This document shows, one piece after another, positions 5,654-51,008 of a stretch of 63,826 bases of DNA; position 1 is the first letter of the stretch; each line of letters begins with the position of its first letter. The notes beneath the pieces are model-generated. The model was not told the DNA's origin. It saw only the letters and a list, made by a program, of their open reading frames with translations, and did no database searches. The position numbers were made by a program, and so were the translations under genes. The DNA is taken from sequence record SRR20825010_708; one strand, written 5' to 3'.

Positions 5654-6541
5654 TTAACTCGTTTCCTTTGGAGTACTGAACTCGTTGATGAGCGCCCCCT
5701 TCACCTTCTGGTCACGCTCGATCTGATTGGTCAGATAATCCGTAATCGCGCCTGTTTCAATCTGGCGCCAGGTGGTGCGCTTGGCCGCGACATGGAACAT
5801 ATTGTGAAGGTAAAGATCCCCCTTCGATTCAAGCTTGGTTCTCGGGCATCGGGACTGCTCGATATCCGAGACCGCACGCACCATCATTTGCACTCCGAGG
5901 CGGACCACTTTTTCATATAGGCTGTTAGGGTGATCACCTTCTTCGATGTGTGGCCGGCCCTGGTATACCACATCGCCATCATCAACCCCCTCAGATACAA
6001 AATGCACAGTGGCCCCAACACACTCCGGCTCGCGATTGTGTATCGCCCAGTCTGTCGTAAACAGACCACGGTAGAACTGGGAGAGCCCCCCATGCAGGTT
6101 GAGGACGCCATATTTCGGAATCGCAAGCAGATCCGCCCTTAAAATTGAGGCACCACAAACGGCAATCACATCAGGCCGCCGGTCTCGAATCCAGGCCAGG
6201 TATTCAGGGTTATTAATCGCATTCACCCCTTGGGTGCGGAGTATTTCGACACCCTCTCCCACCTTCAGAACACGTTCCTCTTCGCCAAAGTCCAGTGAAT
6301 TCGCTGGATCGTTGTAGGGCTGGCGCGGCTCAATAAACCGCCCGTCCATAACCTCCAGAACCTTGCGAAAGAACTGACCGGGCGTAGACAGGTACTTTAT
6401 GGCTTTGGTAGCCAGCGAAGAGCGATCTTTCTCCGGTGTCTGATTTTCAACAACAACACCCACTACGTTCAGGGCCTTGGCCAGCTGATTGGCAAAATAG
6501 ATATCCGACTTGTCAGGACTGACAATCACCAGCGTCCTCAT
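5654..6541 (-). CDS. Stand-alone formyltransferase (Fmt/PurN N-terminal-like fold)
   Basis: LNLHGG (N-x-H) and GATVHFVSEGVDDGDVV motifs of 10-formyl-THF-dependent formyltransferases. Confidence 0.85.
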   Translation of the reverse strand: MRTLVIVSPDKSDIYFANQLAKALNVVGVVVENQTPEKDRSSLATKAIKYLSTPGQFFRKVLEVMDGRFIEPRQPYNDPANSLDFGEEERVLKVGEGVEILRTQGVNAINNPEYLAWIRDRRPDVIAVCGASILRADLLAIPKYGVLNLHGGLSQFYRGLFTTDWAIHNREPECVGATVHFVSEGVDDGDVVYQGRPHIEEGDHPNSLYEKVVRLGVQMMVRAVSDIEQSRCPRTKLESKGDLYLHNMFHVAAKRTTWRQIETGAITDYLTNQIERDQKVKGALINEFSTPKETS

Positions 6542-9373: not shown

Positions 9374-9582
9374 ACATTTCCACCGGCATCAGGGTTAACT
9401 AGAAACTGAAAGCTGTTTCAAATTCCATTTCAATCGAAAAGAAAGACTGTTATATTTTTTTAATGATGAAGGATAGCAAAGCCTAAAAGCCATCGACATT
9501 TATGTCCAAGGGTTTTAAAAAAAAGCTGCAGCGCCACTTCATTGGATCTTATAGGTACGATTGTCAAACAGGACGTTTTGTC

Positions 9583-19200: not shown

Positions 19201-20774
19201 GGTCCGACGTACTCAATTCCAAGTCCCGGATTGTACGCGAGGACAACTTCTTCAGCCTGGGCGGGCACTCATTGCTCGCGCTGCAGGCCATCCGCAGGAT
19301 AGAGAGCCAGACCGGCATCAAACTGACCCCGGAAGACATCGTCGGGCTCAGCCTGAGTGAAATCGCCGAGAAAGTCTCCCACAGCACGCCGGCCTCCGCC
19401 GGGCACGAAGACTCACCGGCGGATCTGCCCACGGCCCAGCGGCGCTTGCTGAGCCATGAACAGACCCGGCTGCTGCTGCGGCAGCTGTCCTACCCGGACA
19501 ACGTGTGTAACAACCTGCCCGCGTCCTGGTTCCTCGAAGGCAACCTTGATATTGATACGTTCACCCGTAGCCTGATCAAGGTTTTCGAGCGCCAGACCGC
19601 GCTGCGAACGGTCATTACCCAGGTGGATAGCCGCTACCAGCAAGGCATCCTGCCAGTGAAGCAGGTCCCCGTACTCGATGTTGTGGACCTAACCGGCGAG
19701 GATAACCCCGAGCAAACGGCGCTGAAACGCTCACGGGACCTGGCGTTCAAACCCTTCAAGGTGCTCGACCGGCCGCTGTTCCGCTCCACGCTGTTTGTGC
19801 TGGGCGATGCCCGCTACCACTACGTGTTCGTGCCACATCAACTGGTCTTCGATGGCTGGTCGTTTGATATCTTCCTCAAGGAACTGGAGGACGCCTATCT
19901 GGTACAAAGCAATACGGAACGGGAAAAAGCCAACAAACTGGCGTTCGAGTTCCGGGATTACGCTGAGTGGTCAATTGAAAAAGGTGCGTCGACAGAGGAT
20001 GTCGATTACCACAGGGCCAAGATTGCCGGCGTCCTGGAATCCGAGGCCCGCGAGAACGAGAACTACGGCAAACCCAACCAATGTGCCCGGGAGACCCTGA
20101 ACTTCCCGGAAGCAAGCCTGGCGATGGTGGAAAAGGTGGGTAATGAACTCGGGCTCAAACTTCACGAGATCCTGTTCTGCCTGTTCGCGGAGACCATCTC
20201 CCGGTCGCACAAAGACAACCGTATTGTGCTTGGCGTGCCCACGTCCGGCCGTCAACGCGCCGACGTGATCAACCTGATTGGTAGCTTTGTGACCACCATT
20301 CCCTGTTTGCTTCAGGCGCCATCGTCCAGCTTCCGGGAGCGCATTGCCAGCCTGAGCGACCAACTCAGGGAAACACTGGACCATCAGACGGTGACCTACG
20401 CTGATATCGTCCGTAACACGCCTGCCGAGAGGGAGCTGTTTCCGGAGTTTGTCCAGGCCAGCTTTGCTTTTCAGGACATCCGCAACCGGCCAACCTCCAT
20501 TGCCGACCTGGCGCTCAGGCAACTGGACCTGCCCCGGCTGAACACCGAATACCCGGTGGAGTACTGGGTGCGGATCCAGCCTGGTGGTTTCATTGGCGTG
20601 TTTGACTACAACGAGGCTTCTGTTGATTCAGAGACGGTACAGTCGCTCAAGGAGACCTTTGCCGGACTTGTTGCGGACCTTGAAAGACTTATCAATGAGG
20701 TGCCCTCAGAACCAAGCCAGTCAAAAACACCGGTCGCCAAGAAGCCGTTCTGGAGGAAGCTGTTTCAGTCATGA
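16269..20774 (+). CDS. NRPS: C-A-T-C (terminal C with variant active site), no thioesterase
   Basis: C1 HHIVCDGWS; A: YIIYTSGSTGKPKG, NMYGPTE, YATGD; T: LGGHSL; C2 HQLVFDGWS. ATGA overlap with the upstream gene. Confidence 0.95.
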   Translation: MSSASFNPFAGGELLRVAPATGPQREIIASAQLSDVANTAFNEAVSVKLSGNLDVNLLRQCFDDLIAKHDILRATFSRNGTEICLHDTSTFQLEVEDLNGGTPSEQEAAIRDLWKNIAISPMNLEEGPLLFAWLMKLDSNTHELVLAAHHIVCDGWSIGLMLTELAESYGSQRAQSDDSGADISFFDYAEMVDSKEISNIDNDYWIDRFAEVPPNLDLPLDYPRPHFRTFEATRLDYRIDPELAKRLPKAAAAMKVSMVNMVLASYFVLLHRLTSSDDIVVGLPVAGQATQNRLKQVGHMVHLLPIRAQLTPDTRFSELCKQVKSEVLNASEHSNFTFGKLIEAINVDRTRVPLINTIFNIDQPLESIQFGDIEGKVRTVPRAAENFEMFLNILPSSDSLTIEATYSTALFSEATIVSWLEALERILATATADVEIAVGSIALAEQEPNVVQRANDTQRDMPHGTVIDALQHHVSATPDAFACAFGDRSWTYQQLDERSNAVAASLANQGIAAGNTVAVCVERSDAALAAIVGILKLGAIYLPLDPDFPEARLQYMIEDSEASAVIVDSQTPAAIAGVNLLKVDINEAIEPASAEASPVPPVRIDPEQTAYIIYTSGSTGKPKGVLVPHRALINFLESMSDKPGCTANDRLLAVTTFSFDISFLELLLPLTQGATTVIADKDSVKDGEKLRRLILDHQISIMQATPATWRMLLDTDWRQDGVRMKGLCGGEPLPQDLVRDLLGCLDELWNMYGPTETTVWSTCHPLRLTDKLISIGKPIHNTQVHILDRERNPVPLSCPGELYIGGLGLATGYHNRPDLTSEKYIDHPLHGRLYATGDLAKWTPDGNLQHLGRMDDQVKVRGYRIELGDIESALAACADIKSACAYVWELAPGDARIVGCVVSESGDVPNVVSIRKELRKLLPAYMIPQYIIAIDSIPLSPSGKMDRRRLPKPELRESSILKASALANQTEEMIADVWSDVLNSKSRIVREDNFFSLGGHSLLALQAIRRIESQTGIKLTPEDIVGLSLSEIAEKVSHSTPASAGHEDSPADLPTAQRRLLSHEQTRLLLRQLSYPDNVCNNLPASWFLEGNLDIDTFTRSLIKVFERQTALRTVITQVDSRYQQGILPVKQVPVLDVVDLTGEDNPEQTALKRSRDLAFKPFKVLDRPLFRSTLFVLGDARYHYVFVPHQLVFDGWSFDIFLKELEDAYLVQSNTEREKANKLAFEFRDYAEWSIEKGASTEDVDYHRAKIAGVLESEARENENYGKPNQCARETLNFPEASLAMVEKVGNELGLKLHEILFCLFAETISRSHKDNRIVLGVPTSGRQRADVINLIGSFVTTIPCLLQAPSSSFRERIASLSDQLRETLDHQTVTYADIVRNTPAERELFPEFVQASFAFQDIRNRPTSIADLALRQLDLPRLNTEYPVEYWVRIQPGGFIGVFDYNEASVDSETVQSLKETFAGLVADLERLINEVPSEPSQSKTPVAKKPFWRKLFQS

Positions 20775-20790
20775 CGGGAAGTAACGGGCA

Positions 20791-21534
20791 ATGATAGAAC
20801 CTTTTTTCTTTGATAACAGCCGCCTGTTCGGCTGCTATTCGTCTGCGACGGACCCCAATGCAGAAAAAGTCGTGGTTGTGTGCCCACCGCTTTTTGACGA
20901 GTACCGGCGCACTTACCGGGCCTTGTCGGAATTGTCCGTGGCCATTTCCGAGCGCGGGAATCATGCGTTTCGCTTCGACTACTACGGAACAGCAGAATCC
21001 CAGGGACTGTTGTCGGAGGCAACCATAGAAGTCTGGTTGTCCGATATCCAAAAAGCGATTGATGAAGCCATCGCTGTCTCCGGTGCCAACCATGTGGTGT
21101 TATTGGGCGTGCGGTTTGGTGCAACACTGGCGGCACAAATTAACCATGCATCCGTAAAGGAATTCCTTTTCTGGGATCCAGTGCTGTCCGGAGAACGCTA
21201 CGTTGAGTGGCTGAATGAGATCGATGCCATCCTGCGCAAGCGGCATCAGTCAGCGGCACGCGAGAACAATGTTCCCTTCGAAAACATAGAGTACAGGAAC
21301 TTCGACCTTCCCTCAGGGCTGGTAACCGGCATACGCGAACTGGCTATTCCCGAGAGTACCCTGAACAACCCCGACCTGTGCTTCACCGTCTCAACCGATC
21401 CGGAATTCTGCAAAAGCTCAGGACTAAGCAACTGCGCCTATCCCGGCCTCAGCTACGATTGGCCGTATTACCACGACGGCGTAATCACCCAGAAACCGGT
21501 ACTCGAAGCATTACTGGACAGGGTATTCGCATGA
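20791..21534 (+). CDS. Alpha/beta hydrolase-fold protein resembling exosortase A system-associated hydrolase 2
   Basis: RFDYYGTAES, elbow LLGVRFGATLA (G-x-R-x-G, no Ser), LFWDPV. Confidence 0.75.
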   Translation: MIEPFFFDNSRLFGCYSSATDPNAEKVVVVCPPLFDEYRRTYRALSELSVAISERGNHAFRFDYYGTAESQGLLSEATIEVWLSDIQKAIDEAIAVSGANHVVLLGVRFGATLAAQINHASVKEFLFWDPVLSGERYVEWLNEIDAILRKRHQSAARENNVPFENIEYRNFDLPSGLVTGIRELAIPESTLNNPDLCFTVSTDPEFCKSSGLSNCAYPGLSYDWPYYHDGVITQKPVLEALLDRVFA

Positions 21535-22379
21535 TCAAGGAACGGATATTCACCTATGGGGAACACCAGCACGGCATTGGCGTTCTCTCCGAGCCTGAAG
21601 ACACCTTCAACAGCCCCATTGTGGTGCTGCTGAACGCCGGCCTGTCCCACCGGGCGGAGCCCTATCGGCTGAATGTACTGCTCGGCCGCCAACTCGCGGA
21701 ACTGGGTTATATCGCGTTGCGGGTGGACCTGTCTGGCAAGGGGGACTCCCCAGCCCACGAAACCATGACCAACCGGGAATCAGTGGCCCTCGACTGGTCA
21801 TTCATGAAGAAATCCCTCGAAAAGCTCTATGGCTCCAGGCCCCTGCTGATCTTCGGTTTGTGTTCAGGTGCCGACAACGGCATCAAACTCTGCGCCCAGG
21901 ACCCATCCATCAAGGGGCTTATCCTTCTGGACCCGGTGTCCCGGCAGGACGAAGGTTTCGCGAAGCGAGAACTGCTCCGGAAGCTGACAAACCCTAACAA
22001 GTGGTTGAATATCCATAAAATTGTCTCCCGCAGGCTGAAACAGAACACCAGCGGTGAACACTCGCTGCTTAGCTCCCCCATGGACTTGCGGGATGAGCCC
22101 AATGAAGACGATATGGACCGTTGCTTCGAGAGCCTGGTGGAAAAAGATGGCCGGGTGTTCGCCGTGTTTACCAGCCAAACCCTCTACCACTACAACAAGC
22201 TTGGCCAGTTCGCCTCTGCCATGGACATCAAAGGCCTTGAACCCATTATCGAGGAAGTCTTCTGGCCCAATGCCAAGCACATCTTCTCCATCGAAGTGCA
22301 CCGACAACGCCTGATCGGCACCATTACAGACTGGGCCAATAAACAACTGGATCACTTGAAGACCCTGAAACCGGAATGA
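21531..22379 (+). CDS. Alpha/beta hydrolase-fold protein resembling exosortase A system-associated hydrolase 1
   Basis: LRVDLSGKGDS, elbow FGLCSGAD, late His (AKHIF). True start at ATG 21531 overlapping the upstream stop (ATGA). Confidence 0.75.
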   Translation: MIKERIFTYGEHQHGIGVLSEPEDTFNSPIVVLLNAGLSHRAEPYRLNVLLGRQLAELGYIALRVDLSGKGDSPAHETMTNRESVALDWSFMKKSLEKLYGSRPLLIFGLCSGADNGIKLCAQDPSIKGLILLDPVSRQDEGFAKRELLRKLTNPNKWLNIHKIVSRRLKQNTSGEHSLLSSPMDLRDEPNEDDMDRCFESLVEKDGRVFAVFTSQTLYHYNKLGQFASAMDIKGLEPIIEEVFWPNAKHIFSIEVHRQRLIGTITDWANKQLDHLKTLKPE

Positions 22380-30330: not shown

Positions 30331-30457
30331 CGCTCCCAATCCCTGTGAACCCTTGTGGATGACATCTCTGCACACTACTGGCAGAATCGCTATGGCGATA
30401 AACTATACATGGACGAACAAGCCAAAACCATTGGCGAAGCCGACGGAGGCCCAAGGC

Positions 30458-31489
30458 GTGGCATTCTTCAGATCCCTTGTTAAATCAGGTGCGCTTTCCA
30501 TACTGGCGTGCTACGGCTGGCTGCGCGTCCGTCTCTCAAAAAAGCCAACGCTCCTGATCCTCACTTACCACCGAATTCTCCCGGCGGATGCACCCGAGCG
30601 TGCCGTTGAGCAACCGGGTATGGTCACCAGCCCGCAGTCACTCGAAAACCATATCAGGTTTGCCCGTAAACTTGGGGCGGAACCCGTCCACCTTTCCGAC
30701 TGGCTTGACCGTAACAGGCAAGGCAAGTCGCTTCCAAAGCTAGCGGTTGCCTTCACCTTTGACGATGGCTGGCAAGACAACTACCAGTACGCCTATCCAA
30801 CTCTCAAAGCACAGAACGCCCCGGCAACGATCTTCCTGGTCACTCAAATGATCGACACCGGCAACACCTTCTGGCCGGAACAGGTGCTCAGCCTACTGAC
30901 CACACAGACCATTCCCGAGAATGACTCATCCTTCGACTGGCTGCGACCTCACCTGCCTAGTGGGCCAACCCCTGGTGCAAATCGCCCTCTTTCCCTTATG
31001 GAAGCGGACGAAGTGATCGCGCGACTGAAGTCACTCGAAGATGTGGCGATCCTTGAGGCTCTTGAACAGGTTTACACATCGCATCCGGATATCGCCCCCA
31101 CGGAAACCTCCAGATCCATTCTCAGCGGCTCGGAACTGGCTGAAATGGCGCAAAACGGTCTTGTGATGTATGGCGCGCACACCAGGCACCATTACCGCCT
31201 GAACCGCCTGAAAGATGAAAAATCGCTAAAAGAAGAAATCGTGGACTGCCTTAAGGACCTCAAACCCCTGGGCGATGCCGCCATACCAGTGTTCTGTTAT
31301 CCCAATGGCGACATAACCGGCAAAGGTGAAGACCTGGTCTCCGATACCTACAAGGCAGCATGCACAACCAAAACCGGCTGGAATGTTGCCGGGTGCAATC
31401 CTTATGATCTTCACCGCTTTAACCTCCATGACGGCAACAGCCACAGTACACGTACCTTACTGGCGACAATCGGACGCGGTCTTTTATGA
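30458..31489 (+). CDS. Polysaccharide deacetylase (CE4/NodB)
   Basis: LTYHRI, FTFDDGW, GAHTRHH, FCYPNG. Start at GTG 30458 after GGAGG. Confidence 0.88.
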   Translation: MAFFRSLVKSGALSILACYGWLRVRLSKKPTLLILTYHRILPADAPERAVEQPGMVTSPQSLENHIRFARKLGAEPVHLSDWLDRNRQGKSLPKLAVAFTFDDGWQDNYQYAYPTLKAQNAPATIFLVTQMIDTGNTFWPEQVLSLLTTQTIPENDSSFDWLRPHLPSGPTPGANRPLSLMEADEVIARLKSLEDVAILEALEQVYTSHPDIAPTETSRSILSGSELAEMAQNGLVMYGAHTRHHYRLNRLKDEKSLKEEIVDCLKDLKPLGDAAIPVFCYPNGDITGKGEDLVSDTYKAACTTKTGWNVAGCNPYDLHRFNLHDGNSHSTRTLLATIGRGLL

Positions 31490-38966: not shown

Positions 38967-40286
38967 TCAGTCCAGCATGCTCTTTACCACTCGCATTTTA
39001 CCTGACTTCTCCCGTGACAAACTTTCAACCAGATTCACTTCAAATCTAAACTCTGCTCCAATAGCTTCAACGAGCTGGCTTTTTAAGGCAACGTCGAACG
39101 AATCATCCCACGATACATTTGGCACGATATTGACTGATATGGCGTCGATATCAGTTTGTATGGCCTGAAACTGCTTAAAGACTGGCATTTTTTCCTGAAT
39201 CCCTTCGAATATGTAAATCACAGCTTCCGGATGAATCCTTGTACCGCTAGGAGACCGAATAATATCGTACGCCCTCCCATGTATTTTATTGATAGTCGGC
39301 AGTTCACGGCCGCACCGACAAGTGCCTTCGCCCATTGTGGCGAAATCCCCTAGCCTATACCTCACCAGAGGGGTAACTTGGTTAAAATAGTCCGTAACGA
39401 TAATCTCCCCAGGTTGCCCCGGTTCCGAGTCGATCTCGACGTGCAAATTATCAGCCATAACATGCATACTTCCATACTCACATTCGTGAGCAATGGAACC
39501 GACCTCACCGCATCCATATTCATTGAAGACCTTGCGCTGAAAGGCATTTTCTATGAGCGCCCTGGATGAATCCGACAGTACTTCCGAAGTTGTAATGAGC
39601 GACACCAGACTGCTCGGAGGCTGCAATTGCTTCGATTGGATGAACCTCGCAAACTCTTCAATGACACTTACGTATCCATATAGGTATTGAGGCTGAAAAC
39701 TACATAGGTCGTTGTAATACTTATACAAATTATCGTCGTTAATCGAAAAAGCCGATATTCTTTTCCTGTTTGCAATCAAATCAATGAGTCTCGCAGTCAG
39801 TCTTCCACTCCGACTATGTGGAACACCCCAAAACCTGACCTGGCGATCAGCGACGCTAACCCCTGCCCACTCATACGATCTCCAGGTGGCGCAGCGTTCG
39901 CGGGCCAAAGCCGACCCGTTTTTGAAAATCTTGACCGGCTCTCCCGTGGAACCACCAGTGGTCTTCGCCGAACTAAAAAGACCGGCGTTTTTGGCGCGAA
40001 TATGGTCAAGATTATCAATCAGTTGGGCTTTCGACAAAGTAGGTAAGTCTGGGCTTGGTATAATACTATTATCAGTAATGAAGCTCGAAAGGCATTTTTG
40101 ATAATAACTACTGTTTTCAACCGCATACCTTACGATTCTATCAAAATGTTCATCCCGGAATGCTTCGAGCTCTCTGGCTGACCACCACTGTCTTTCTTCA
40201 TATCCCCTGCGATAAAAGGCAATTAACTCTCCTTTTGCTAAAGTCACAGGATAGTAAAATAGGTACTTAGATAACAGCTTATTCAT
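38967..40286 (-). CDS. Phenylacetate-CoA ligase-like / CapK-family adenylate-forming enzyme
   Basis: TTGGSTGEP, NEYGCGE, PLVRYRLGD, SGKMR. Start at ATG 40286. Confidence 0.88.
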   Translation of the reverse strand: MNKLLSKYLFYYPVTLAKGELIAFYRRGYEERQWWSARELEAFRDEHFDRIVRYAVENSSYYQKCLSSFITDNSIIPSPDLPTLSKAQLIDNLDHIRAKNAGLFSSAKTTGGSTGEPVKIFKNGSALARERCATWRSYEWAGVSVADRQVRFWGVPHSRSGRLTARLIDLIANRKRISAFSINDDNLYKYYNDLCSFQPQYLYGYVSVIEEFARFIQSKQLQPPSSLVSLITTSEVLSDSSRALIENAFQRKVFNEYGCGEVGSIAHECEYGSMHVMADNLHVEIDSEPGQPGEIIVTDYFNQVTPLVRYRLGDFATMGEGTCRCGRELPTINKIHGRAYDIIRSPSGTRIHPEAVIYIFEGIQEKMPVFKQFQAIQTDIDAISVNIVPNVSWDDSFDVALKSQLVEAIGAEFRFEVNLVESLSREKSGKMRVVKSMLD

Positions 40287-41268
40287 TTCTATTCCTTTCC
40301 AATATTGGATATATAACTGAACAGATTCTTCCAAATAAATAAATGTATGCAACCATAATATTGCAGGAAAAGACTTTTATATTTTTAAATCTGAACTTCG
40401 CATATACAAACATTGCCAAGATCAGCCACGTAAGAAACACAAAAATCTGGACAACAGTAACAGAGCCCGTTAACACCCCAATCAGGATACCAATTTGTAT
40501 CAGAGCAAAAATTGCAGCTAGCATAGCAACCTTTGATCGAACGAAATAATAGAAGCTCGAGAAGTCTGAGGCGCCATGCCAACATTCGCGGACAATAAAC
40601 TCCCAAACTGTATCGGGATACCCTAAATGTCTTGCTACTAGTTCGCTGTCAGCCTGCACCGATGCACCTACCTGCAGGGCTCTCTGACACAGGTCATAAT
40701 CTTCACCGGATTTCAACGAATCATCAAATCCCCCAATTTCATCAAAGAGGCTACGAGATATAATCAAGTGACCCGATCCGAGATGAGTATTACGGTCATC
40801 ATCTTCAATTGACTTGTACCAGGTAAAGAAGGGTTGTCTTATATTTTCTGGTACAACACAGTGGGATCCTGTAATTAACTTAGAGTCGGAGATCGCTTTA
40901 AATTTAGATAAAAGCACATCGTACCAAGTGCAATCTATCTCTACGTCTGCATCAATAAAAGCAATAAGCCTTCCGCGGGAAACCTTTACACCGTCGTTTC
41001 TGACACCAGAAACAGTTTTAGAGCTGCTTTCAACAACTAGAGCCCCACACCTCTCCGCAATTATTGCGCTTTTGTCGATAGAGCCATTATCGACCAATAT
41101 TATTTCATAAGTATCGCAACATCTTTTAAGACTTTCTTTTATTGAATCTATAACGACTTCAATAAAACTTTCACCATTGTAGCAAGGAATAATAAACGAT
41201 AATTCAAAATCATATGACTCACAGTAATGATCCAATTTATGCCAACCTCCTTCAATACGGTGACTCAT
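40279..41268 (-). CDS. Glycosyltransferase family 2
   Basis: SFIIPCYN, VDNGSID, FIDAD, GGFD...GEDYD; C-terminal TM helices. Confidence 0.9.
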   Translation of the reverse strand: MSHRIEGGWHKLDHYCESYDFELSFIIPCYNGESFIEVVIDSIKESLKRCCDTYEIILVDNGSIDKSAIIAERCGALVVESSSKTVSGVRNDGVKVSRGRLIAFIDADVEIDCTWYDVLLSKFKAISDSKLITGSHCVVPENIRQPFFTWYKSIEDDDRNTHLGSGHLIISRSLFDEIGGFDDSLKSGEDYDLCQRALQVGASVQADSELVARHLGYPDTVWEFIVRECWHGASDFSSFYYFVRSKVAMLAAIFALIQIGILIGVLTGSVTVVQIFVFLTWLILAMFVYAKFRFKNIKVFSCNIMVAYIYLFGRICSVIYPILERNRNE

Positions 41269-43291: not shown

Positions 43292-44467
43292 ATGGAACCC
43301 AGAATACTCGTACTTGACGGAAATCAGCGTGCCTCCCTGGCCGCTGTGCGTTCTCTGGGGTCGAGGGGGCTCTGGGTCGCCGTGGGTGAAGCGGCACCGG
43401 AGTCGCTCGCTGGTTGTTCCCGTTACTGCCACCAGCGGGTGACCTATTCAAATCCCTTCCTGTCGCCTCGCCTTTTTTTCGACGATATTTTGCATCAAGT
43501 CGAATCGCTCGGCATTTCATTTTTGTTGCCAATCACAGAGGCCACAACGTACGTCCTGCTGCGGTACCGTGATGAGCTGCCAGATCATATTGTACTCCCC
43601 TTCTCCACCACGGAGGCAGTGGAACAACTGGCAAATAAGAACGATCTGTTTCAGTTGGCCCAGGAGAAAAATATCCCCGTTCCGGATACCGTCTTTTGCA
43701 ATGATGCCGAGGAAGGCTTGAGGGCACTCAACGACTTGGAGCGCTTTCCGGTCGTTTTAAAACCTTACAAGTCCAAAGTGTTGACTGAAGGGGGCATCGA
43801 GTCCACTCAGGTTATTGTTGCCAATACCAGGCAGGAGGCGCGAACGGCTATCACCTCCAATGGATTTTTTCGCTTTCCCTTCTCGATTCAATCCTTTATC
43901 AACGGTACTGGCCAGGGCGTTTTTGCGTTGTTTGATCATGGTGATCCGGTGTGCTATTTCGCCCATCGCCGGCTTAGGGAGAAACCTCCCGGTGGCGGCG
44001 TAAGCGTACTATGCGAGTCCGCTCCCATTAATGAGCAACTTCGTGTATCCGCAGAAACGTTACTTCGTTCCGCAAAATGGCATGGCGTAGCCATGGTGGA
44101 GTTCCGGGTGGCTGAGGACGGTACCGGGTACCTTATGGAAGTTAACCCCAGATTCTGGGGGTCTTTACAGCTGGCAATCGACTCCGGTATTGACTTCCCA
44201 TGGTTGCTATACCTTGTGAGTACCGGTCAAGCCGTACCCCAGCCGGTATGGGAGTATCGACGTGTACGCTGGTTGCTGGGTGATCTGGATAGGCTTTACC
44301 TCGTTTTAAAGGCACCTTTGAGCCGTTACTCACTTAGCTGGAAATTGCGGGAAATCTTCAATTTTGTTATGCCGAACCTGCGAACCCGCCATGAAGTCAA
44401 TCGGTGGAAAGATCTTCGTCCGTTCTGGTTCGAGCTGAAACATTACCTACGCGCACTAAAGAACTGA
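43292..44467 (+). CDS. ATP-grasp carboxylate-amine ligase
   Basis: FPVVLKP, AMVEFR, LMEVNPRFWGSL. Confidence 0.88.
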   Translation: MEPRILVLDGNQRASLAAVRSLGSRGLWVAVGEAAPESLAGCSRYCHQRVTYSNPFLSPRLFFDDILHQVESLGISFLLPITEATTYVLLRYRDELPDHIVLPFSTTEAVEQLANKNDLFQLAQEKNIPVPDTVFCNDAEEGLRALNDLERFPVVLKPYKSKVLTEGGIESTQVIVANTRQEARTAITSNGFFRFPFSIQSFINGTGQGVFALFDHGDPVCYFAHRRLREKPPGGGVSVLCESAPINEQLRVSAETLLRSAKWHGVAMVEFRVAEDGTGYLMEVNPRFWGSLQLAIDSGIDFPWLLYLVSTGQAVPQPVWEYRRVRWLLGDLDRLYLVLKAPLSRYSLSWKLREIFNFVMPNLRTRHEVNRWKDLRPFWFELKHYLRALKN

Positions 44468-44469
44468 CA

Positions 44470-45645
44470 ATGCCTGACAAGAAACCCTACGTTATTATCC
44501 TTGCTAACGGACTTAACGGCCTCGGTGCTGTGCGCTCAGCCGCTCACGCGGGCCTGAAGACCTATACGCTCCTCACTAATCACTCGGACCTGTGTACCTA
44601 CAGCCGGTTTGGCCAGTATCGCTTCCTGTTGCCGCCCAATCCCACCGCTGACGATCTTCGGCCTGTTCTCGACCAGCTGCATGACAATGAAGGCGGGCCA
44701 GGGGTTTTGCTTGCATGCTCGGATTTGGCAGCGGAGTTACTCGGGCAACTGAAATGTGAAGGTTATGCCAAACAGCATCTTGTTGTTCCTAGCACTGAAA
44801 CCACGAACGTCCTTAACGACAAGAAGCTGGAATGCCTGTATATGGAAAAGGGCGGCATTACCCTTCCAAAAACCTATTGCCAGCTGTCGGATGACGAACC
44901 GGATGCCTTCCCAATCATCATCAAGCCACGAACTTTCAGGGAATACGGTGTGCTGGGCGCGAAAAACGTTATTCTGCACTCCCCCGCTGAACTGAACGAT
45001 TTCCGGCAACGCTTCAAGGGCTACCTTGACCGATTCATCGGACAGAAAGTGGTCCAAGGGGGTGACGATAATCTATGGGTCTGCAATGTAACGTTTGACC
45101 ACCAGCAGCAGCTCAGTGCCTGTTTTGTGTTCAAACGCATGGGAACCATGCCCTCACACTATGGCGTGACGTCCATGGCGATCAGCCAGGAGAATCAGAA
45201 GCTCCGGGAAGAGTGCGAAAAGATTGGTAAGGCCCTGAACTACACTGGCCCGGCGATGATCGAGTTCAAGAAGGACCAAAATTCAGACACTTACTACTAT
45301 ATTGAAACCAACCCCCGCCTCGGCATGTGTAACTGGTTTGATACTCGTTGCGGAGTCAACAATATCCTGGCGTGCACCCACGCGGCCTACGGTCAGAAGA
45401 GTGCATTGGCACCCCAGAAGAACAATTGGGTTTACTGGAACTTTTTTGGTGACCTGATCGCACGACTTGAAAACAGAGAGAACCTGTTGTCGATACTCTT
45501 TCGCTACCTGAGGGTACTCCGCCGGCGGCGTATCGGCGCATTGCTCTACTGGAAAGACCCTCAGCCCGCCTTTCGATATGCCCGGTCTTCCATCCGGGAT
45601 ATGGCTCAACGGGTAGGCAGGAAGCTGCGTGAGAAAGTTGGCTGA
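44470..45645 (+). CDS. ATP-grasp carboxylate-amine ligase (D-aspartate-ligase-like)
   Basis: NGLGAVRS, FPIIIKP, AMIEFKKD, IETNPR. Start at ATG 44470. Confidence 0.85.
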   Translation: MPDKKPYVIILANGLNGLGAVRSAAHAGLKTYTLLTNHSDLCTYSRFGQYRFLLPPNPTADDLRPVLDQLHDNEGGPGVLLACSDLAAELLGQLKCEGYAKQHLVVPSTETTNVLNDKKLECLYMEKGGITLPKTYCQLSDDEPDAFPIIIKPRTFREYGVLGAKNVILHSPAELNDFRQRFKGYLDRFIGQKVVQGGDDNLWVCNVTFDHQQQLSACFVFKRMGTMPSHYGVTSMAISQENQKLREECEKIGKALNYTGPAMIEFKKDQNSDTYYYIETNPRLGMCNWFDTRCGVNNILACTHAAYGQKSALAPQKNNWVYWNFFGDLIARLENRENLLSILFRYLRVLRRRRIGALLYWKDPQPAFRYARSSIRDMAQRVGRKLREKVG

Positions 45646-46646
45646 TTAGGCAGTTTTTCTTTCATGGCCTCAAACCGGTTTACGATTTGAATAAAATCGG
45701 CGACAGCCCCAGGCACTGAAAATCGTGGGAGTTCAAAGTGACTACAACCCTGGCTGACATAATCCGGAACAGTGTTGAACGCCATCTTGAATCCCGCCCG
45801 TTTCAGTTCTTCTATATCAGCCGAATCGTAATCTGAACGGCGTCCAGTCGGGTAGGCAAAGACTTCCGGCGTATATTGCAGCTCCTGCTCAACCCTTTTG
45901 CGGGCTTCGTTGATTTCCCGGTGCTTTTCCTCCGGCGACAGCGCCGAGAGAATGCGGTGCGAACAGGTGTGCGGATACACTCCATGCCCTCTTTCACGCA
46001 ACGATCTTGCATCGTTCCAGGACATTGGCCGGTATTCCGGAGGAATATTGCCAGGAAACTCAACCTTGAGTTTATGGTAGAGTTCTTCATCCAGCCAGCG
46101 GTAGATATGCGCCTGTTTGTCTTTTTTCAGCGCGTTCCGAATCTCGCGAGCCGTTTGCCTGATACTCTTCACCGAAAGATCTACGGAGCACCCGCCACCT
46201 GATGGGAGCTGGAGGCTAACCTGTCGCAGGTCTGTCCGATTCAGTGCATAAGCGATCTGGTCGTCCCACGGCCACAGGTGCTTATCCAGCAAACCAGTGA
46301 TCACGAAGAAGTTGAGGGGAAAGCCGAACTCATCAAAAACCCTCGCCGCCACGTCGTGGTGGTCGAAGAAGCCATCATCAATGGTAAACATGACCGTTTT
46401 TGACGGAATTGGCTCGCCTTTCTCGAGAACTTTCCATAGTTGCTCCATGGACAGCACTTTGTACCCCCGCCTGGAAAGGTAACGAAGGTAGCTGCGAAGC
46501 TTGTCCGCGGTCATATCACCAGGTATATCGTCGTTGCCATCGGTAACACGGTGCAGCATAAAAACCGGGATACGCCCGGGGCACAACAGGCGATACAGCC
46601 CGGTCTCGCCAACAAAGTTTACGAAGTTCAAGACAACTGATTTCAA
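45606..46646 (-). CDS. Polysaccharide deacetylase (CE4/NodB)
   Basis: FMLHRV, FTIDDGF, PHTCSH, FAYPTG. Start at TTG 46646 after CAGGAGG. Confidence 0.85.
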   Translation of the reverse strand: MKSVVLNFVNFVGETGLYRLLCPGRIPVFMLHRVTDGNDDIPGDMTADKLRSYLRYLSRRGYKVLSMEQLWKVLEKGEPIPSKTVMFTIDDGFFDHHDVAARVFDEFGFPLNFFVITGLLDKHLWPWDDQIAYALNRTDLRQVSLQLPSGGGCSVDLSVKSIRQTAREIRNALKKDKQAHIYRWLDEELYHKLKVEFPGNIPPEYRPMSWNDARSLRERGHGVYPHTCSHRILSALSPEEKHREINEARKRVEQELQYTPEVFAYPTGRRSDYDSADIEELKRAGFKMAFNTVPDYVSQGCSHFELPRFSVPGAVADFIQIVNRFEAMKEKLPNQPTFSRSFLPTR

Positions 46647-46698
46647 GCCTGCGCCTCCTGCGTTAAATCCACACGACTCCGGTCCTTCGGCCGGCGCC

Positions 46699-47805
46699 TT
46701 AGCGCCGAATAAACCTTTCATACAACCCGCGGTACGCCTCCAACATACTTCCAAGGCTGAATCGCTCGAGCGCGTTTTGTCGGGCTTTTTCGATAACCTT
46801 GCTACGCAACGTCGGGTCTTTCAGGCGCTCGACCGCACCAACGATGGCGTCCGGGTCTTTGATGGGTATCAGGAGCCCGGTTTCGCCATCGGAGAGTATT
46901 TCCTCCGGACCGCCACTTCGTGTCGCGATAATGGGCACTCCAGCCATCATAGCTTCAACGGTGGATATTGAGAATCCCTCGGAGACCGAGGGCAACAGAA
47001 AAATATCTGCCTGCCGTAAAATGCCTGCTACATCCGACCTGAAGCCGAGCCAGTGGATTCTGGGAGGCTCTTCAGCCCGGGCGATTTGAGCCTCGAGCTG
47101 TTTAAACAGGGACTCTCTCTGGTGCCCCACAACGACAAAGTGAACACTGGGGTCCAGTTTGGCCATTTTGATGGCCGCATCCACCAGATGTTCGTAACCT
47201 TTGGCGGGCCGAATATTACCGATAGAGGCCACAACAGTGGCTTCCGGCGGCAACCCCAGCTCCCCTCTCAGGCCCGATGCAGGCGCTTCGCAAAACATAT
47301 CCGGGTCAACACCGTTGTAAATCAGGTTGATCTTCCGCGCCGGTAAGGAACTGCGGGCCGCCAGTTCTTCCTGCAACCGCTTGGAGACACAGACAATTGC
47401 AGACGCCCCACACCCGATGATGGAAAACTTGGCTTTCAGAAATCTCTCTCCAGCGGCCACATCGACGGCTCCATGAAAAGTCGCGATCATGGGCTTGCGG
47501 CAGATAAGTGCCAGTAAGGCGCCATATACGTTTGAACCCAGCAGGTGAGCGTGAATCAGGTCCACGCTCTCTTGGATCACCAGTTGCCTCAATACTTTGA
47601 TATATCCGAGGTTAAAACTGCCCTTGGAGTCTATGAACTTAGGGGTAATACCAACGCTGCGGACCTGGTCTGCTACCCAACCTTCACCCCGCAGCACCAC
47701 CACATTACGGAACTCTGTGTGCTGTAGTTCTTTGAGAAGATTAATGAAAACGGTTTCGGCGCCGCCAGGGCCCGTTGTATCAATAAGATGCAGAATGGTC
47801 TTCAT
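46699..47805 (-). CDS. Glycosyltransferase family 4
   Basis: GPGGAE, IYNGVD, GNIRPAKG, SEGFSISTVEAM. Confidence 0.92.
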   Translation of the reverse strand: MKTILHLIDTTGPGGAETVFINLLKELQHTEFRNVVVLRGEGWVADQVRSVGITPKFIDSKGSFNLGYIKVLRQLVIQESVDLIHAHLLGSNVYGALLALICRKPMIATFHGAVDVAAGERFLKAKFSIIGCGASAIVCVSKRLQEELAARSSLPARKINLIYNGVDPDMFCEAPASGLRGELGLPPEATVVASIGNIRPAKGYEHLVDAAIKMAKLDPSVHFVVVGHQRESLFKQLEAQIARAEEPPRIHWLGFRSDVAGILRQADIFLLPSVSEGFSISTVEAMMAGVPIIATRSGGPEEILSDGETGLLIPIKDPDAIVGAVERLKDPTLRSKVIEKARQNALERFSLGSMLEAYRGLYERFIRR

Positions 47806-47823: not shown

Positions 47824-48801
47824 TTACAATCCTCTCATCCAATAGAGGGCCCGGAACAACGCGCTTTTCACAAGCATTACGGATACAAACTGATAGGTAT
47901 CTGTTGCCAGTCGCGCTTTATAGTCCTCTTTCTTGCCTTTTCCCGCTAGCAGATCAAACCGGTGAGTATCTGATTGCTTGAACGCGTCCTCGATGGCATA
48001 TCCGAGATGGAGAGTGCCAAGAGATAGCTTTTTATGGAAGTTCTCCTCAAATCCTGCCTGTATGTTGTATACCACTCCCCTGTACCAGACATTATATAGA
48101 ACGGACACCACTGTATTGTCACACAACAATGCCGATAAAAAAGGGCGACCGCCCTCATCTTCTATCCGGGAGAGGAAAGCCCGGTGGAAAGCCAGACTTT
48201 TATCAGTCACACAATCTTTTTTCCACCTGGCTTGATGAAAGCGGTTTAACGCCTGGAAAAAGCCTTCCGGACTGGTTGGCCACAGGTTTTCTTGCCGCAC
48301 CTCCCCTAGCGACTCAAATGTGGTCCGCCGGTTATAGAGTCTCAGACGACTGTTGGCACCCAGGGCTCCGAGGTAATCTTCGAAGTCGCCGGAAGTCTTG
48401 ACGGCGTATCCGTCATCAGCCGCAATGATACGAAAAGCCCAACGTTGGGTGGCAGCAAGAGTGACCAGAGCAGATAGCTCTTCGGAGCCAGTGCGCAAGT
48501 CACTGAAAACCGCTTCGCTCCAGTGGCTGTTTTCCAGTTGGTGCTCCAAACCACGGATCAGTGGTTGGCCACCCATGTCTGTAAAAAAGCGGTTATGTTC
48601 CGTTCTTGGGGTTCTCAGCTCACGGGAGCTAGTGCCTACGAACTGGAGCGATCGTATAGGCAGTACCCCTTTCAGCCTGTACCTGGACTCATACAGCCCG
48701 GACACTTCTCCGTCCCAGGGCCGGACAAGGCGGAAGCTTTTCTGGTGCCCCCAGGTGTCCCACCAGGCGCTTTGCCACGCCTTTGTCTGGAACAGGCTCA
48801 T
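47824..48801 (-). CDS. GNAT family acyltransferase, CelD/BcsL-like
   Basis: FQTKAWQSAWW, QAGF...SLGTLHL, FDLLAG...YK. Start at ATG 48801 overlapping the upstream TAA. Confidence 0.82.
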   Translation of the reverse strand: MSLFQTKAWQSAWWDTWGHQKSFRLVRPWDGEVSGLYESRYRLKGVLPIRSLQFVGTSSRELRTPRTEHNRFFTDMGGQPLIRGLEHQLENSHWSEAVFSDLRTGSEELSALVTLAATQRWAFRIIAADDGYAVKTSGDFEDYLGALGANSRLRLYNRRTTFESLGEVRQENLWPTSPEGFFQALNRFHQARWKKDCVTDKSLAFHRAFLSRIEDEGGRPFLSALLCDNTVVSVLYNVWYRGVVYNIQAGFEENFHKKLSLGTLHLGYAIEDAFKQSDTHRFDLLAGKGKKEDYKARLATDTYQFVSVMLVKSALFRALYWMRGL

Positions 48802-50114
48802 TACGGCAGGGCCTTGACGATATGAGGGCCAAGCAGCGTGGTCACCCAAACCGGAAGTCGCTGCCATACGGCGATCAACAGCCTGAACTTCGGGTTGTTC
48901 GGGTTGAGTGCGGGTAGCGCCTCTCCCTCCGGCAGCAAGTAGTCCCAATGCAATGTCAGAGGCTGGGCACCCCACTGTTGCTTGAAACGATAGGTGCCGG
49001 CATCGTGACTGCAACGGCCGAAGTCAAAAACCTCGAAACCCTGCTGTACCGCGAACTCCAGGGCTTTCCAGTACATGATCATATTGATGCTGGTGTGGTT
49101 GTACTTGCGCAGTGTAGACGCCCAGGGAATCTCCATGCGGCCCTTGTAACCGGTCAAAAAAGCGCAGCCAACCGCTTGCCCGTCAATACGGGCAACTACC
49201 AGCCACGCCTGCCCGCCTAGAGTGTCCAGCAAGTTTCGGAAAAACTCTTTACCGTAGACGGGCGTTCCGAGGTCACGCATGTTGATGGCAAAAACCCGAT
49301 AGAACTCGTCCAGCAAGTCGGCGCCACCGATAGCGAACCCGTTCATTTCCCGCTCGCCCCGGCGGATTTGCGCACGCAGTTTGGGCTGGAAGCTGTCCCA
49401 CAGGTCTTTGGCCTTACTCGGCAGTGGTAACCAGAAGGTGACTTTGTCCGTGCGTTGCGGTAAGCCAAGTTTATTATCCTGGCAAAACCGCATTTCCAGG
49501 TGACCTGCTCCCAACTGCTGTCGCCACTTTTCGCCCTCGCCGATGAGTTTTTGGGCAATGTCGGGATGGTCCGCCAAAACCCCGCCATAATTAAAATAGG
49601 GCATTGAAACCAGGAAATTACCAAAAAGCCGGCTATTGAGTTGTACCAGGGGAAGCACACCGACAATGCCCCCTACGTCATCGTAGGCGCAGAGATATCG
49701 AGTGTTGTGGCCGTAGGTTTTACTGATGAACGATGAAATACAAGGCCTATGCCAAACTGACGCTGCAGGATGACGGGCTACGTAGGCTTCTGCGTGATGG
49801 ATGTCGGAATCTGCACAGGGCTCTACGGCGATGGCTTGTGCCATCGTGGTATTTCCAACAGCAGGAGGAATAGTGATCGGCTTTGGGGTCCACTTATTCT
49901 GTGCCTGAGCCCCATTGAGTTGCTGCTTAACCTGCTTCTGGAGCTGTTTTATCTCGCTGGATACCTGTTGGAGCTCGGCAATCAGTTCATCCGCATTGGT
50001 TCCGCTTTTGCGGGCTTCGCCCACCAGGCGACTGAGACGGCCTTTGTCACTCTTCAACTCGTCCAGCCGCGCCTTTGAAGCCTCCAGACCGGGGATAGGT
50101 GTCTCCATTCCCAT
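48801..50114 (-). CDS. FemAB-family XrtA/PEP-CTERM-associated protein with N-terminal coiled-coil extension
   Basis: LVSMPYFNYGG, KLRAQIR, NMRDLGTP, FDFGR...GTYRFKQQWG, LNPNNPKF...WQRLP. Start placed at ATG 50114 (RBS AAGGA). Confidence 0.88.
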   Translation of the reverse strand: MGMETPIPGLEASKARLDELKSDKGRLSRLVGEARKSGTNADELIAELQQVSSEIKQLQKQVKQQLNGAQAQNKWTPKPITIPPAVGNTTMAQAIAVEPCADSDIHHAEAYVARHPAASVWHRPCISSFISKTYGHNTRYLCAYDDVGGIVGVLPLVQLNSRLFGNFLVSMPYFNYGGVLADHPDIAQKLIGEGEKWRQQLGAGHLEMRFCQDNKLGLPQRTDKVTFWLPLPSKAKDLWDSFQPKLRAQIRRGEREMNGFAIGGADLLDEFYRVFAINMRDLGTPVYGKEFFRNLLDTLGGQAWLVVARIDGQAVGCAFLTGYKGRMEIPWASTLRKYNHTSINMIMYWKALEFAVQQGFEVFDFGRCSHDAGTYRFKQQWGAQPLTLHWDYLLPEGEALPALNPNNPKFRLLIAVWQRLPVWVTTLLGPHIVKALP

Positions 50115-50147
50115 TACGCTATCCTTAAAGAATTCCCTAAACAACGA

Positions 50148-51008
50148 TCAGACAGCGACAGCCCTAGTGGGTATGTCCATACCGGACAGCACGTCCGATA
50201 CCGAGCCAAAACGGAAATCGCCGAGCAGCCGTTCAAGCCGATGCATGCACTTATCCAGGTTGTTGTAGTGTCGGAAGCGGGAAAATGCCTTGACGTTCAG
50301 CCTTGGTTGCCCGGTATCGATTTCCCAGGGGTGCAGGTAGAAAATAAACGGTTGCCCTGCCCGGTTAATCTTGCCCAGGCCCCAATGGCTGAGCCAGTAA
50401 GGGAACAATCGGAAGTAGCCCCCCCCTGCGATGGGCAACCGGTATCTACCAATCGGGCAGGTCGACAGCGGAAACTCCGTGAGGGTTTTGCCATTGGGCG
50501 CCTGCAATAGATAGGGCTCGTGAGGCGTGCCTGGCATGCCATAGCGATCATGGTGAACCGGGAATATCGATGAATCCCAGGTGAACCCCTCATCGCAAAG
50601 GATATCCAGAGCCCAACGGGACTGTGCCGTAATTGAATAGCTCGCAGCCCTGTAGCCGGTTATAGGCTCACCGGTAATGTCTTCGAGTATGCGCTTGGAC
50701 TTGCGGGTTTCTTCCTTGAAAACCTCCGGTGTCTGGGTGTAGACCAACTGGTGGCTGTATCCATGACTGGCGATCTCGTGCCCCGCTTGCTGGATCTTTT
50801 TCACCAGCCCGGGGGAGCGCTCGGCAACCCAGCCCAAGGTAAAGAAGGTCGCCTTCACATCACGCTCGGAAAACAGTTCCAGCAACCGTTCTGTGTTGGC
50901 TTCAACCCGGTATTCCATGGTTGGCCAGTCGTCACGATGGACGGCCTCGGCAAGTGCCGCTACCTGAAAATAATCTTCGACATCGATTGTCAGGGCGTTC
51001 TGTTTCAC
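50148..51008 (-). CDS. XrtA-system polysaccharide deacetylase
   Basis: NALTIDVEDYFQV, TFFTLGWVAE, ASHGYSH, GGGYFRL, FYLHPWEID. Confidence 0.92.
   Translation of the reverse strand: MKQNALTIDVEDYFQVAALAEAVHRDDWPTMEYRVEANTERLLELFSERDVKATFFTLGWVAERSPGLVKKIQQAGHEIASHGYSHQLVYTQTPEVFKEETRKSKRILEDITGEPITGYRAASYSITAQSRWALDILCDEGFTWDSSIFPVHHDRYGMPGTPHEPYLLQAPNGKTLTEFPLSTCPIGRYRLPIAGGGYFRLFPYWLSHWGLGKINRAGQPFIFYLHPWEIDTGQPRLNVKAFSRFRHYNNLDKCMHRLERLLGDFRFGSVSDVLSGMDIPTRAVAV

Follow-up and report, generated by a model that had tools for sequence, protein, structure and literature searches.

The Fem-type gene and its N-terminal extension

The analysed window, a stretch of 63,826 nucleotides from sequence record SRR20825010_708, carries on its minus strand a gene for a FemAB-family XrtA/PEP-CTERM-associated protein of 437 amino acids (P0001; 48801..50114, stop codon included in the open reading frame). 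This protein joins a Fem-type catalytic core to an N-terminal helical arm which, on the profile and structural comparisons given below, is homologous to the tRNA-binding domain of seryl-tRNA synthetase (SerRS). The closest locus in the species collection is that of Marinobacter algicola DG893 (L001; 89% identity), and the source organism is a Marinobacter; P0002 is 99% identical to P0001. The curated NCBIfam model TIGR03019 (FemAB family, XrtA/PEP-CTERM system-associated) matches the protein with 381.4 bits, above its cut-off of 260.35 bits. The match spans only residues 109-437 (model positions 4-330 of 330), which leaves about the first 100 residues as an extra segment outside the family core.

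The start of the gene is well defined. The ATG at 50114-50112 has a Shine-Dalgarno-like AAGGA 7 nucleotides ahead of it (50122..50126, minus strand; read off the sequence), and the same start position is used in Marinobacter orthologues. The deacetylase gene upstream terminates with a TGA at 50150-50148, which leaves no room for a longer or different N-terminus. The arm is thus not an artefact of a wrong start. A start at Met91, which would exclude the arm, is ruled out by the ribosome-binding site and ATG at 50114, the gene spacing, the excess of synonymous differences from the M. algicola orthologue, and the retention of the arm in more than 30 loci. A sequence-only reading of this stretch had allowed that translation might begin downstream of the arm; it begins ahead of it.

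All parts of the protein are encoded on the minus strand. In the AlphaFold2 (AF2) model (mean predicted local distance difference test score, pLDDT, 94), residues 10-37 (50004..50087) and 42-73 (49896..49991) form two antiparallel helices with pLDDT ~97. Helix 1 is additionally delimited by the Pfam alignment and the column comparison described below, and helix 2 by the arm alignment A2. A Pro-rich and probably flexible linker follows (residues 74-95; 49830..49895), which is poorly conserved and modelled with pLDDT 58-59. The remainder is the Fem-type tandem-GNAT catalytic core (residues 96-437; 48804..49829), recognized by Foldseek and Pfam matches. The segment singled out by the sequence-only reading (49915-50090) encodes residues 9-67, and the peptide it quoted comprises residues 17-62.

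Homology of the arm to the seryl-tRNA synthetase domain

Taken singly, the sequence of P0001 bears a resemblance to SerRS that is suggestive, not conclusive. The Pfam model Seryl_tRNA_N (PF02403) aligns residues 14-65 with profile positions 42-93 of 108 (E 3.6e-5), at a score of 24.4 bits that misses the gathering threshold of 28.2 bits. A phmmer search of the whole protein against the Protein Data Bank (PDB) is led by Aquifex SerRS (2dq3; E 0.024), and SerRS accounts for four of the 11 matches at E<=10, in a single register. The helix 1 block LSRxxGEARKSG aligns with SKSIGxAKxxG of SerRS. The full-length synthetase model TIGR00414 is matched only at positions 42-103 of 418 (12.6 bits against a cut-off of 301.65); judged from its sequence, P0001 is not a SerRS and the class II catalytic core is absent. 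Generic coiled coils can also yield weak matches to SerRS models: in M. algicola, an EnvC-like M23 activator containing a long coiled-coil segment (L091 1287-2423; G001:C96) matches positions 19-117 of the serS model at E 2e-4, so a single sub-threshold Pfam match would not suffice alone.

The family provides far stronger evidence. An exhaustive search of 1.84 billion representatives retrieved 7020 relatives of P0001 at E<=0.001, the best 150 of which were examined. Two forms occur among these: a long form of ~430-500 amino acids that aligns from query residue 10-20, and a short form of ~340-365 amino acids that aligns from ~100. Seryl_tRNA_N is detected at E<=0.001 in 37 of 73 long-form representatives and exceeds the 28.2-bit cut-off in 16 of the 73, with the top scores in P0146 (41.3 bits) and P0137 (37.7 bits; profile 3-97). 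A precomputed PF02403 label is attached to 51 of the 120 closest homologues. Many long forms start with a segment like 'LDIKAIVQNPQ...', which is aligned by hhalign with the N-terminus 'MLDxKxxR...' of five SerRS.

Three profiles were used for comparison: A1, from 65 long forms; A2, an arm-only alignment of 33 sequences from genomic loci; and A3, from five SerRS N-terminal domains. Searched against the PDB, A1 has SerRS 2dq3 as its top match (E 8.4e-7) and recovers eight distinct SerRS sequences at E<1e-3, all in one register; coiled coils of other kinds begin at E 0.0029. The top eight matches of A2 are all SerRS (E 4.5e-11 to 9.6e-6), with the next at E 1.4e-3. Direct alignment of A2 with A3 by hhalign covers 104 columns with a probability of 97.3% and E 2.1e-11. 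A hidden Markov model (HMM) of the arm scores 47.5, 41.0, 37.0, 31.5 and 20.9 bits against the SerRS proteins of five Fem-bearing genomes, and its alignment with the gammaproteobacterial SerRS that scores highest is colinear (HMM 6-100 with SerRS 5-100).

As a control, the arm HMM was run unfiltered on 3400 six-frame open reading frames (ORFs) of at least 80 amino acids, 628,369 residues in all, taken from the window and from 91 loci, which are rich in coiled-coil chain-length proteins. Only the Fem ORFs and the five SerRS (48.2, 42.3, 38.2, 32.7 and 20.9 bits) were recovered; the next-best ORF reached 9.6 bits. This control and the PDB rankings of A1 and A2 rule out a chance or compositional likeness between coiled coils. 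Structure prediction gives the same picture. The full arm of a relative (L021; 101 amino acids) is modelled by AF2 with pLDDT 97.5 as two short helices and a long hairpin, and the first 18 rows of its Foldseek search are all SerRS (TMq 0.66-0.80; at most 28% identity to E. coli SerRS; E from 1.9e-3), the modest E-values reflecting the small size and helical nature of the domain.

On these sequence profiles and predicted structures, the Fem arm and the tRNA-binding domain at the N-terminus of SerRS are truly homologous. The homology is decided by the family-level profiles and not by the Pfam score of P0001, whose arm is counted on the same profile evidence as a shortened and diverged member of PF02403. 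The sequence-only reading had proposed that the extension resembles the helical arm of SerRS. That proposal was borne out and goes further, from resemblance to homology, by the PDB rankings, the arm HMM, hhalign and Foldseek alike. The profile comparison it suggested came out divided: Seryl_tRNA_N does match residues 14-65 and the family profiles match strongly, while the score of P0001 itself stays under the Pfam threshold.

Homology does not by itself fix what the arm does. It may have lost RNA binding and become a dimerisation or docking element, for example to the tyrosine kinase or co-polymerase, whether or not the enzyme uses tRNA. Proteins often contact one another through antiparallel helical hairpins, the chain-length and kinase proteins of the locus are rich in coiled coil, and arm-less relatives are as common as arm-bearing ones. 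We nevertheless regard such a role as improbable. The arm HMM is unlike the other coiled coils of these loci, none of which exceeds the 9.6 bits of the best ORF outside Fem and SerRS, and the conserved positions are those of the SerRS tip block, beyond the heptad hydrophobics. In addition, a Fem enzyme requires some handle on its tRNA, and in SerRS this domain is described as such a handle (PMC4666401).

Distribution and conservation of the arm

The arm is present in 63 of the 150 representatives; in 67 the core is preceded by no more than 60 residues, 10 carry other N-terminal additions and 10 are fragments. This census is a classification and not a test, since the HMM was built from the same long forms. 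In most arm-less loci a stop codon closes the frame less than 70 codons ahead of the core, so the absence of the arm is real. With 67 of the 150 representatives lacking it, the arm is not essential to the chemistry of the family. A separate small gene encoding a split-off arm beside arm-less relatives can be rejected, as no flanking ORF of at least 80 amino acids exceeds 9.6 bits in 80 loci.

Arm-bearing forms are mostly from Gammaproteobacteria (Marinobacter, Hahella/Allohahella, Oleiphilaceae, Thiotrichaceae, Granulosicoccus), together with two Comamonadaceae and one metagenome-assembled genome (MAG) labelled Verrucomicrobiaceae. Arm-less forms derive from Nitrospirota, Calditrichota, KSB1, Desulfobacterales, Steroidobacteraceae, among other groups. 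A rapid maximum-likelihood tree built from 76 complete cores (unrooted, incomplete cores dropped) places the arm-bearing rows in two neighbouring groups, one of 24 rows with a Shimodaira-Hasegawa-like approximate likelihood ratio test (SH-aLRT) support of 95 and one of nine rows with a support of 93; the sole 'arm-less' row of the latter, L034, is cut by a contig end. Another group (SH-aLRT 88) unites 42 arm-less rows. The arm label requires a minimum of 3 changes on this tree, compared with a mean of 24.7 after shuffling. A single gain of the arm is compatible with this pattern, not proven by it.

The arm varies in extent. Matches to the arm HMM start at ~1-7 ('full'), 19-29 or ~32-45 ('short') in arm-bearing loci. 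P0001 and all Marinobacter orthologues have the short arm, in which the distal hairpin is kept, but neither the short helices at the N-terminus nor the proximal portion of helix 1. The short helices (profile 1 to ~25) are present in full-arm relatives and absent from P0001, where the Pfam match begins at profile position 42.

Comparison with the M. algicola orthologue over codons 9-73 reveals 21 synonymous and 12 non-synonymous differences, with 9/5/28 base changes at the three codon positions. By this pattern, the arm is translated and under constraint. The linker evolves faster than the arm: non-synonymous differences outnumber synonymous ones in five of six comparisons with Marinobacter orthologues, and its length varies in A1. 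In one MAG (L003 5980-7311), the Fem gene is divided between two frames, ORF 5980-6516 encoding the arm and a second one from 6520 the core, through a frameshift, a stop or an assembly error.

A Fem-type catalytic core

The closest structures to the core are aminoacyl-tRNA-dependent transferases. Foldseek ranks Weissella viridescens FemX first (1ne9, 4ii9; E 2.7e-16 to 1.5e-15; TM-score ~0.7 on the target), followed by S. aureus FemX, Sba18/Sbb17 (E 7e-14 to 5e-13) and S. aureus FemA, and then by MprF and ordinary tandem GNATs. The FemX, Sba18/Sbb17 and FemA matches span E 2.7e-16 to 2.7e-12, and all of the top 11 fold matches are aminoacyl-tRNA-dependent transferases. Sba18/Sbb17 are described in the PDB as 'aminoacyl-tRNA-dependent peptide synthase ... 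complexed with streptothrisamine'. At the sequence level, the core matches the Pfam families Acetyltransf_6 (77.6 bits) and FemAB (26.7 bits; cut-off 24).

The residues F377-K378 (codons at 48981..48986, minus strand) are invariant in the 65 long-form relatives of A1. The profile alignment of the family with FemX, 'YrFK', ends at FemX residue 305 and pairs them with F304-K305. Lys305 is the catalytic residue of FemX, and an equivalent Lys is essential in DhpH-C, as summarized in a review of 2026 (PMC12945691). By predicted fold and profile alignment, the P0001 core is a Fem-type tandem-GNAT fold that keeps the catalytic Phe-Lys pair of FemX.

The Acetyltransf_6 match, the strongest in Pfam and well above the FemAB score, and the presence of tandem GNAT acetyltransferases among the fold matches (E ~1e-10) would suit an ordinary acyl-CoA-dependent GNAT that re-acylates a deacetylated sugar and carries the SerRS-like arm as a relic. 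This is very improbable given the other evidence: aminoacyl-tRNA-dependent transferases fill the top 11 fold ranks, the FemX Phe-Lys pair is invariant, and the arm is not a relic, as the synonymous excess relative to the M. algicola orthologue and its conservation in more than 30 species indicate. P0001 itself quite likely depends on tRNA.

Gene context and the likely acceptor

The window contains a complete exosortase A island. This includes PrsR, PrsT, XrtA-EpsI (4149-5645), a priming glycosyltransferase (TIGR03013), an export protein (TIGR03027), a chain-length determinant (TIGR03007), a tyrosine kinase (TIGR03018), a polysaccharide deacetylase (TIGR03006), an outer-membrane protein and three PEP-CTERM proteins. 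The deacetylase lies directly upstream of the Fem gene (50148..51008, minus strand) and matches its XrtA-system model TIGR03006 with 410 bits, compared with a cut-off of 276. The same arrangement is found in 38 of 78 related loci (14 of 32 with the arm, 24 of 46 without), and where the arm is present, it occupies 340-450 nucleotides between the deacetylase gene and the core.

Fusion proteins link the Fem core to sugar metabolism. A deacetylase/DUF3473 is fused to it in P0187, P0217 and P0219, and a GT4 glycosyltransferase in P0198, P0222, P0225 and P0258; read from their domain sequences, these Rosetta-stone fusions support a role on a sugar substrate. The TIGR03006 deacetylase probably makes a free sugar amine. 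It is proposed as the amine source because a Fem enzyme needs an amine acceptor and a sugar de-N-acetylase makes one. We see about an even chance that the acceptor is an amino sugar of the exopolysaccharide from which the N-acetyl group has been removed.

There are precedents for such chemistry. The Fem-like Orf11 is described as transferring Gly from Gly-tRNA onto the amino sugar streptothrisamine, and VlmA as using Ser-tRNA-Ser as donor (PMC12945691). N-Aminoacyl amino sugars are reported in Gram-negative surface glycans, such as GlcN(L-alanyl) in Proteus penneri 25 and Qui3N(N-acetyl-L-seryl) in E. coli O114 (PMC10609480).

Downstream of the Fem gene, a second Acetyltransf_6 GNAT (47824..48810, minus strand; 59.5 bits) overlaps the Fem stop by 10 nucleotides. 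No significant BLASTP similarity to P0001 and no PDB sequence match was found for it, which rules out a recent duplicate of the Fem gene. Speculatively, it might act on the residue once added, for instance through N-acetylation.

The possible tRNA partner

The only role that PMC4666401 documents for this SerRS domain is to hold both tRNA-Ser and tRNA-Sec by their long variable arm and their elbow. As the coiled coil is a tRNA-binding domain in SerRS, the simplest reading is that the Fem enzyme uses it for the same tRNA partner. That the arm binds tRNA is likely. The sequence-only reading had named tRNA-Leu beside tRNA-Ser; tRNA-Leu appears the weaker candidate of the two by analogy, because SerRS and LeuRS are described as holding their tRNAs in different ways (PMC4666401).

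Column by column, five SerRS were compared with 96 Fem arms, of which 33 came from loci (the window among them) and 63 were representatives; some of the arms may be near-duplicates. The arms retain L47 (66/96), S55 (72/96), K56 as Arg or Lys (77/96), I58 as I, F or V (90/95), G59 (67/95), A61 (58/92), K62 as Lys or Arg (78/93), G65 (50/95) and L71 (83/96). Q48 and R37 of SerRS are not retained, and neither is N52, which is invariant in SerRS (5/5); the five commonest residues at its position in the 96 Fem arms are K (30), G (29), R (14), Q (11) and S (6). In human SerRS, the absolutely conserved Asn (N58) is described as bonding the phosphates of the variable arm and S61 as lying near U20 (PMC4666401). 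Based on the shared invariant Asn, we infer that N58 and S61 correspond to N52 and S55. The loss of the Asn is a caveat, not a refutation, because human mutants at those residues are reported to keep a third to a half of activity (PMC4666401). It leaves a seryl-tRNA donor plausible but unproven; by analogy with SerRS, we would put the chances of Ser-tRNA-Ser being the donor just short of even.

Alternatively, the arm may bind tRNA without specificity for tRNA-Ser, as a general clamp on the elbow of the kind proposed for the internal coiled coil of FemA and FemB, with for example Ala- or Gly-tRNA as donor. The replacement of the invariant Asn, which contacts the variable-arm phosphates, is in line with this, as is the short Marinobacter arm, which lacks the N-terminal third of the domain. 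SerRS contacts are moreover described as being mainly to the backbone (PMC4666401), and the known N-aminoacyl sugars surveyed in PMC10609480 bear Ala, Gly, Thr and Asp besides Ser. We consider a general clamp unlikely, though less so than loss of RNA binding. The block at the tip of helix 1 (S55, K56 as Arg/Lys, I58, G59, A61, K62, G65, L71) is kept across the 96 arms and includes the position that would match human S61, a described tRNA contact (PMC4666401). Furthermore, the arm preserves SerRS-like sequence over ~100 residues, and not a mere coiled-coil shape, which suggests that the original tRNA surface is still in use.

Proposed function

It is reasonably probable that P0001 is a Fem-type transferase of the cytoplasm that depends on aminoacyl-tRNA and belongs to the XrtA/PEP-CTERM exopolysaccharide pathway, and that its SerRS tRNA-binding domain was acquired in a mainly gammaproteobacterial branch of the family. 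In the proposed mechanism, the helical arm, tethered by the flexible Pro-rich linker, would hold a charged tRNA in the region of its elbow and variable arm. The tRNA's acceptor end could then enter the tandem-GNAT active site, where the F377-K378 pair would support aminoacyl transfer onto a free amino group of a repeat-unit sugar. This amine would most likely originate from the neighbouring XrtA-system deacetylase. A more specific version, in which the enzyme moves serine from Ser-tRNA-Ser to the sugar amine freed by the XrtA deacetylase and thereby decorates a Gram-negative exopolysaccharide, is put forward tentatively; we judge it possible but less probable than not.

Several observations weigh against this account. 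S. aureus FemA uses Gly-tRNA as donor, and the coiled-coil arms of staphylococcal Fem enzymes in general serve Gly-tRNA, which has no long variable arm. Besides the sub-threshold Pfam score of P0001, the weak SerRS-model matches of generic coiled coils and the loss of the invariant Asn, the arm of P0001 covers only profile positions ~36-98, and its placement relative to the core is undefined in the AF2 model because of the low confidence of the linker (pLDDT ~58). The arm is missing from many representatives, and the deacetylase does not adjoin the Fem gene in 40 of the 78 loci. No tRNA gene or additional SerRS was found within the window, and the five related genomes each contain one SerRS above the cut-off, other matches being class II synthetase-like frames; a dedicated tRNA gene in the window or a second SerRS is thereby excluded as a partner of the Fem gene. 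Finally, the N-terminal helices that are missing from the short Marinobacter arm are described as supplying a tRNA contact, R9, in human SerRS, and the SerRS arm is described as acting across the dimer (PMC4666401).

Relation to known systems

Fem-type transferases are already known, as are the charged tRNAs they use and the likeness of the FemA arm to that of SerRS. What differs here is an N-terminal, tethered and SerRS-derived arm on an enzyme of a Gram-negative exopolysaccharide pathway. Literature searches returned no paper describing a SerRS arm on a Fem-type PEP-CTERM enzyme, though databases do tag the PF02403 domain.

The arm shares homologous sequence and fold with the N-terminal domain of SerRS (PF02403; PDB 2dq3, 6r1m, 6hdz, 1ser), namely two short helices followed by a long antiparallel hairpin, and the tip block S-(K/R)-x-I-G-x-A-K-x-x-G is common to both. 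It differs in sitting on a Fem-type transferase instead of a class II core, in having lost the invariant Asn and, in Marinobacter, in keeping only the distal two thirds.

S. aureus FemA (1lrz) and FemX (6snr) have the tandem-GNAT Fem fold in common with P0001. They are aminoacyl-tRNA-dependent and carry a helical coiled-coil arm that has been likened to the SerRS arm. The FemA arm is an insertion within the second domain, and to our knowledge, no sequence homology of it to SerRS has been reported; in P0001, by contrast, the arm is N-terminal, linker-tethered and SerRS-derived. The acceptor of the staphylococcal enzymes is a peptidoglycan precursor and not an exopolysaccharide. W. viridescens FemX, the best fold match, shares the Phe304 and Lys305 pair, but has no arm, is only ~15% identical to P0001 and uses UDP-MurNAc-pentapeptide as acceptor.

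ErdS carries a whole aspartyl-tRNA synthetase (AspRS). ErdS (PMC13219428) and AcmF-type enzymes, which are fusions with parts of aminoacyl-tRNA synthetases or mimics of such parts, follow the same principle as the P0001 family, that of a transferase borrowing synthetase modules to hold an aminoacyl-tRNA; the P0001 family, in contrast to ErdS, took only the tRNA-recognition arm without the synthetase catalytic domain. The streptothricin-type enzymes Sba18/Sbb17 and Orf11 (PDB 9wqw-9wqy) are Fem-like and are reported to aminoacylate an amino-sugar amine from aminoacyl-tRNA (PMC12945691), but they are Gram-positive enzymes of secondary metabolism that take Gly-tRNA as donor and lack a SerRS arm.

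The uncharacterized pair of TIGR03019 and the deacetylase TIGR03006 belongs to the core genes of widespread XrtA/PEP-CTERM exopolysaccharide and floc-formation systems. A true SerRS domain turns the label 'FemAB-related' into a testable hypothesis, with an aminoacyl-tRNA donor (Ser-tRNA-Ser being the first candidate), a de-N-acetylated amino-sugar acceptor and an N-aminoacyl sugar product. It also provides a clean case of a transferase capturing the tRNA-recognition module of a synthetase, independently of the internal coiled coil of the staphylococcal enzymes. If the proposed function holds, exopolysaccharides would join the few known uses of charged tRNA outside the ribosome. Were Ser-tRNA-Ser the donor, tRNA identity recognition would have been transferred as a module from a synthetase to a non-ribosomal transferase, and a donor, an acceptor and a product could be assigned to the TIGR03019/TIGR03006 pair of thousands of PEP-CTERM loci.

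Other features of the island and the family

The same locus has three further genes for candidate amide- or ester-forming enzymes. These genes (38970-40352, minus strand; 43292-44464 and 44404-45642, plus strand) encode a PaaK/F390-synthetase-like adenylating enzyme and two ATP-grasp proteins, which could load amino acids or acyl groups onto the polysaccharide without tRNA. Besides TIGR03006, two more genes of the polysaccharide deacetylase family are present (45609-46754, minus strand; 30353-31486, plus strand), with PgaB-like N-terminal matches.

Within the exosortase island lies a hybrid nonribosomal peptide synthetase-polyketide synthase (NRPS-PKS; 9502-22376, plus strand), made up of a 2256-amino-acid protein with adenylation, ketosynthase, acyltransferase and aminotransferase-like regions and a 1501-amino-acid NRPS. 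Directly after it come weak matches to 'exosortase A system-associated' hydrolases 2 and 1 (TIGR03101, TIGR03100). The model for the XrtA-associated acyl-CoA ligase, TIGR03098, matches adenylation domains only. In the XrtA-EpsI gene at 4149-5645 (plus strand), exosortase A is joined to an EpsI-family C-terminal domain in one 499-amino-acid protein. Among the relatives of P0001, the metagenomic protein P0264 (653 amino acids) combines its Fem core in a fusion with a TIR_2 domain at the N-terminus and a TRADD-like N-terminal domain, an architecture that is unrelated to the arm and recalls defence or signalling proteins.

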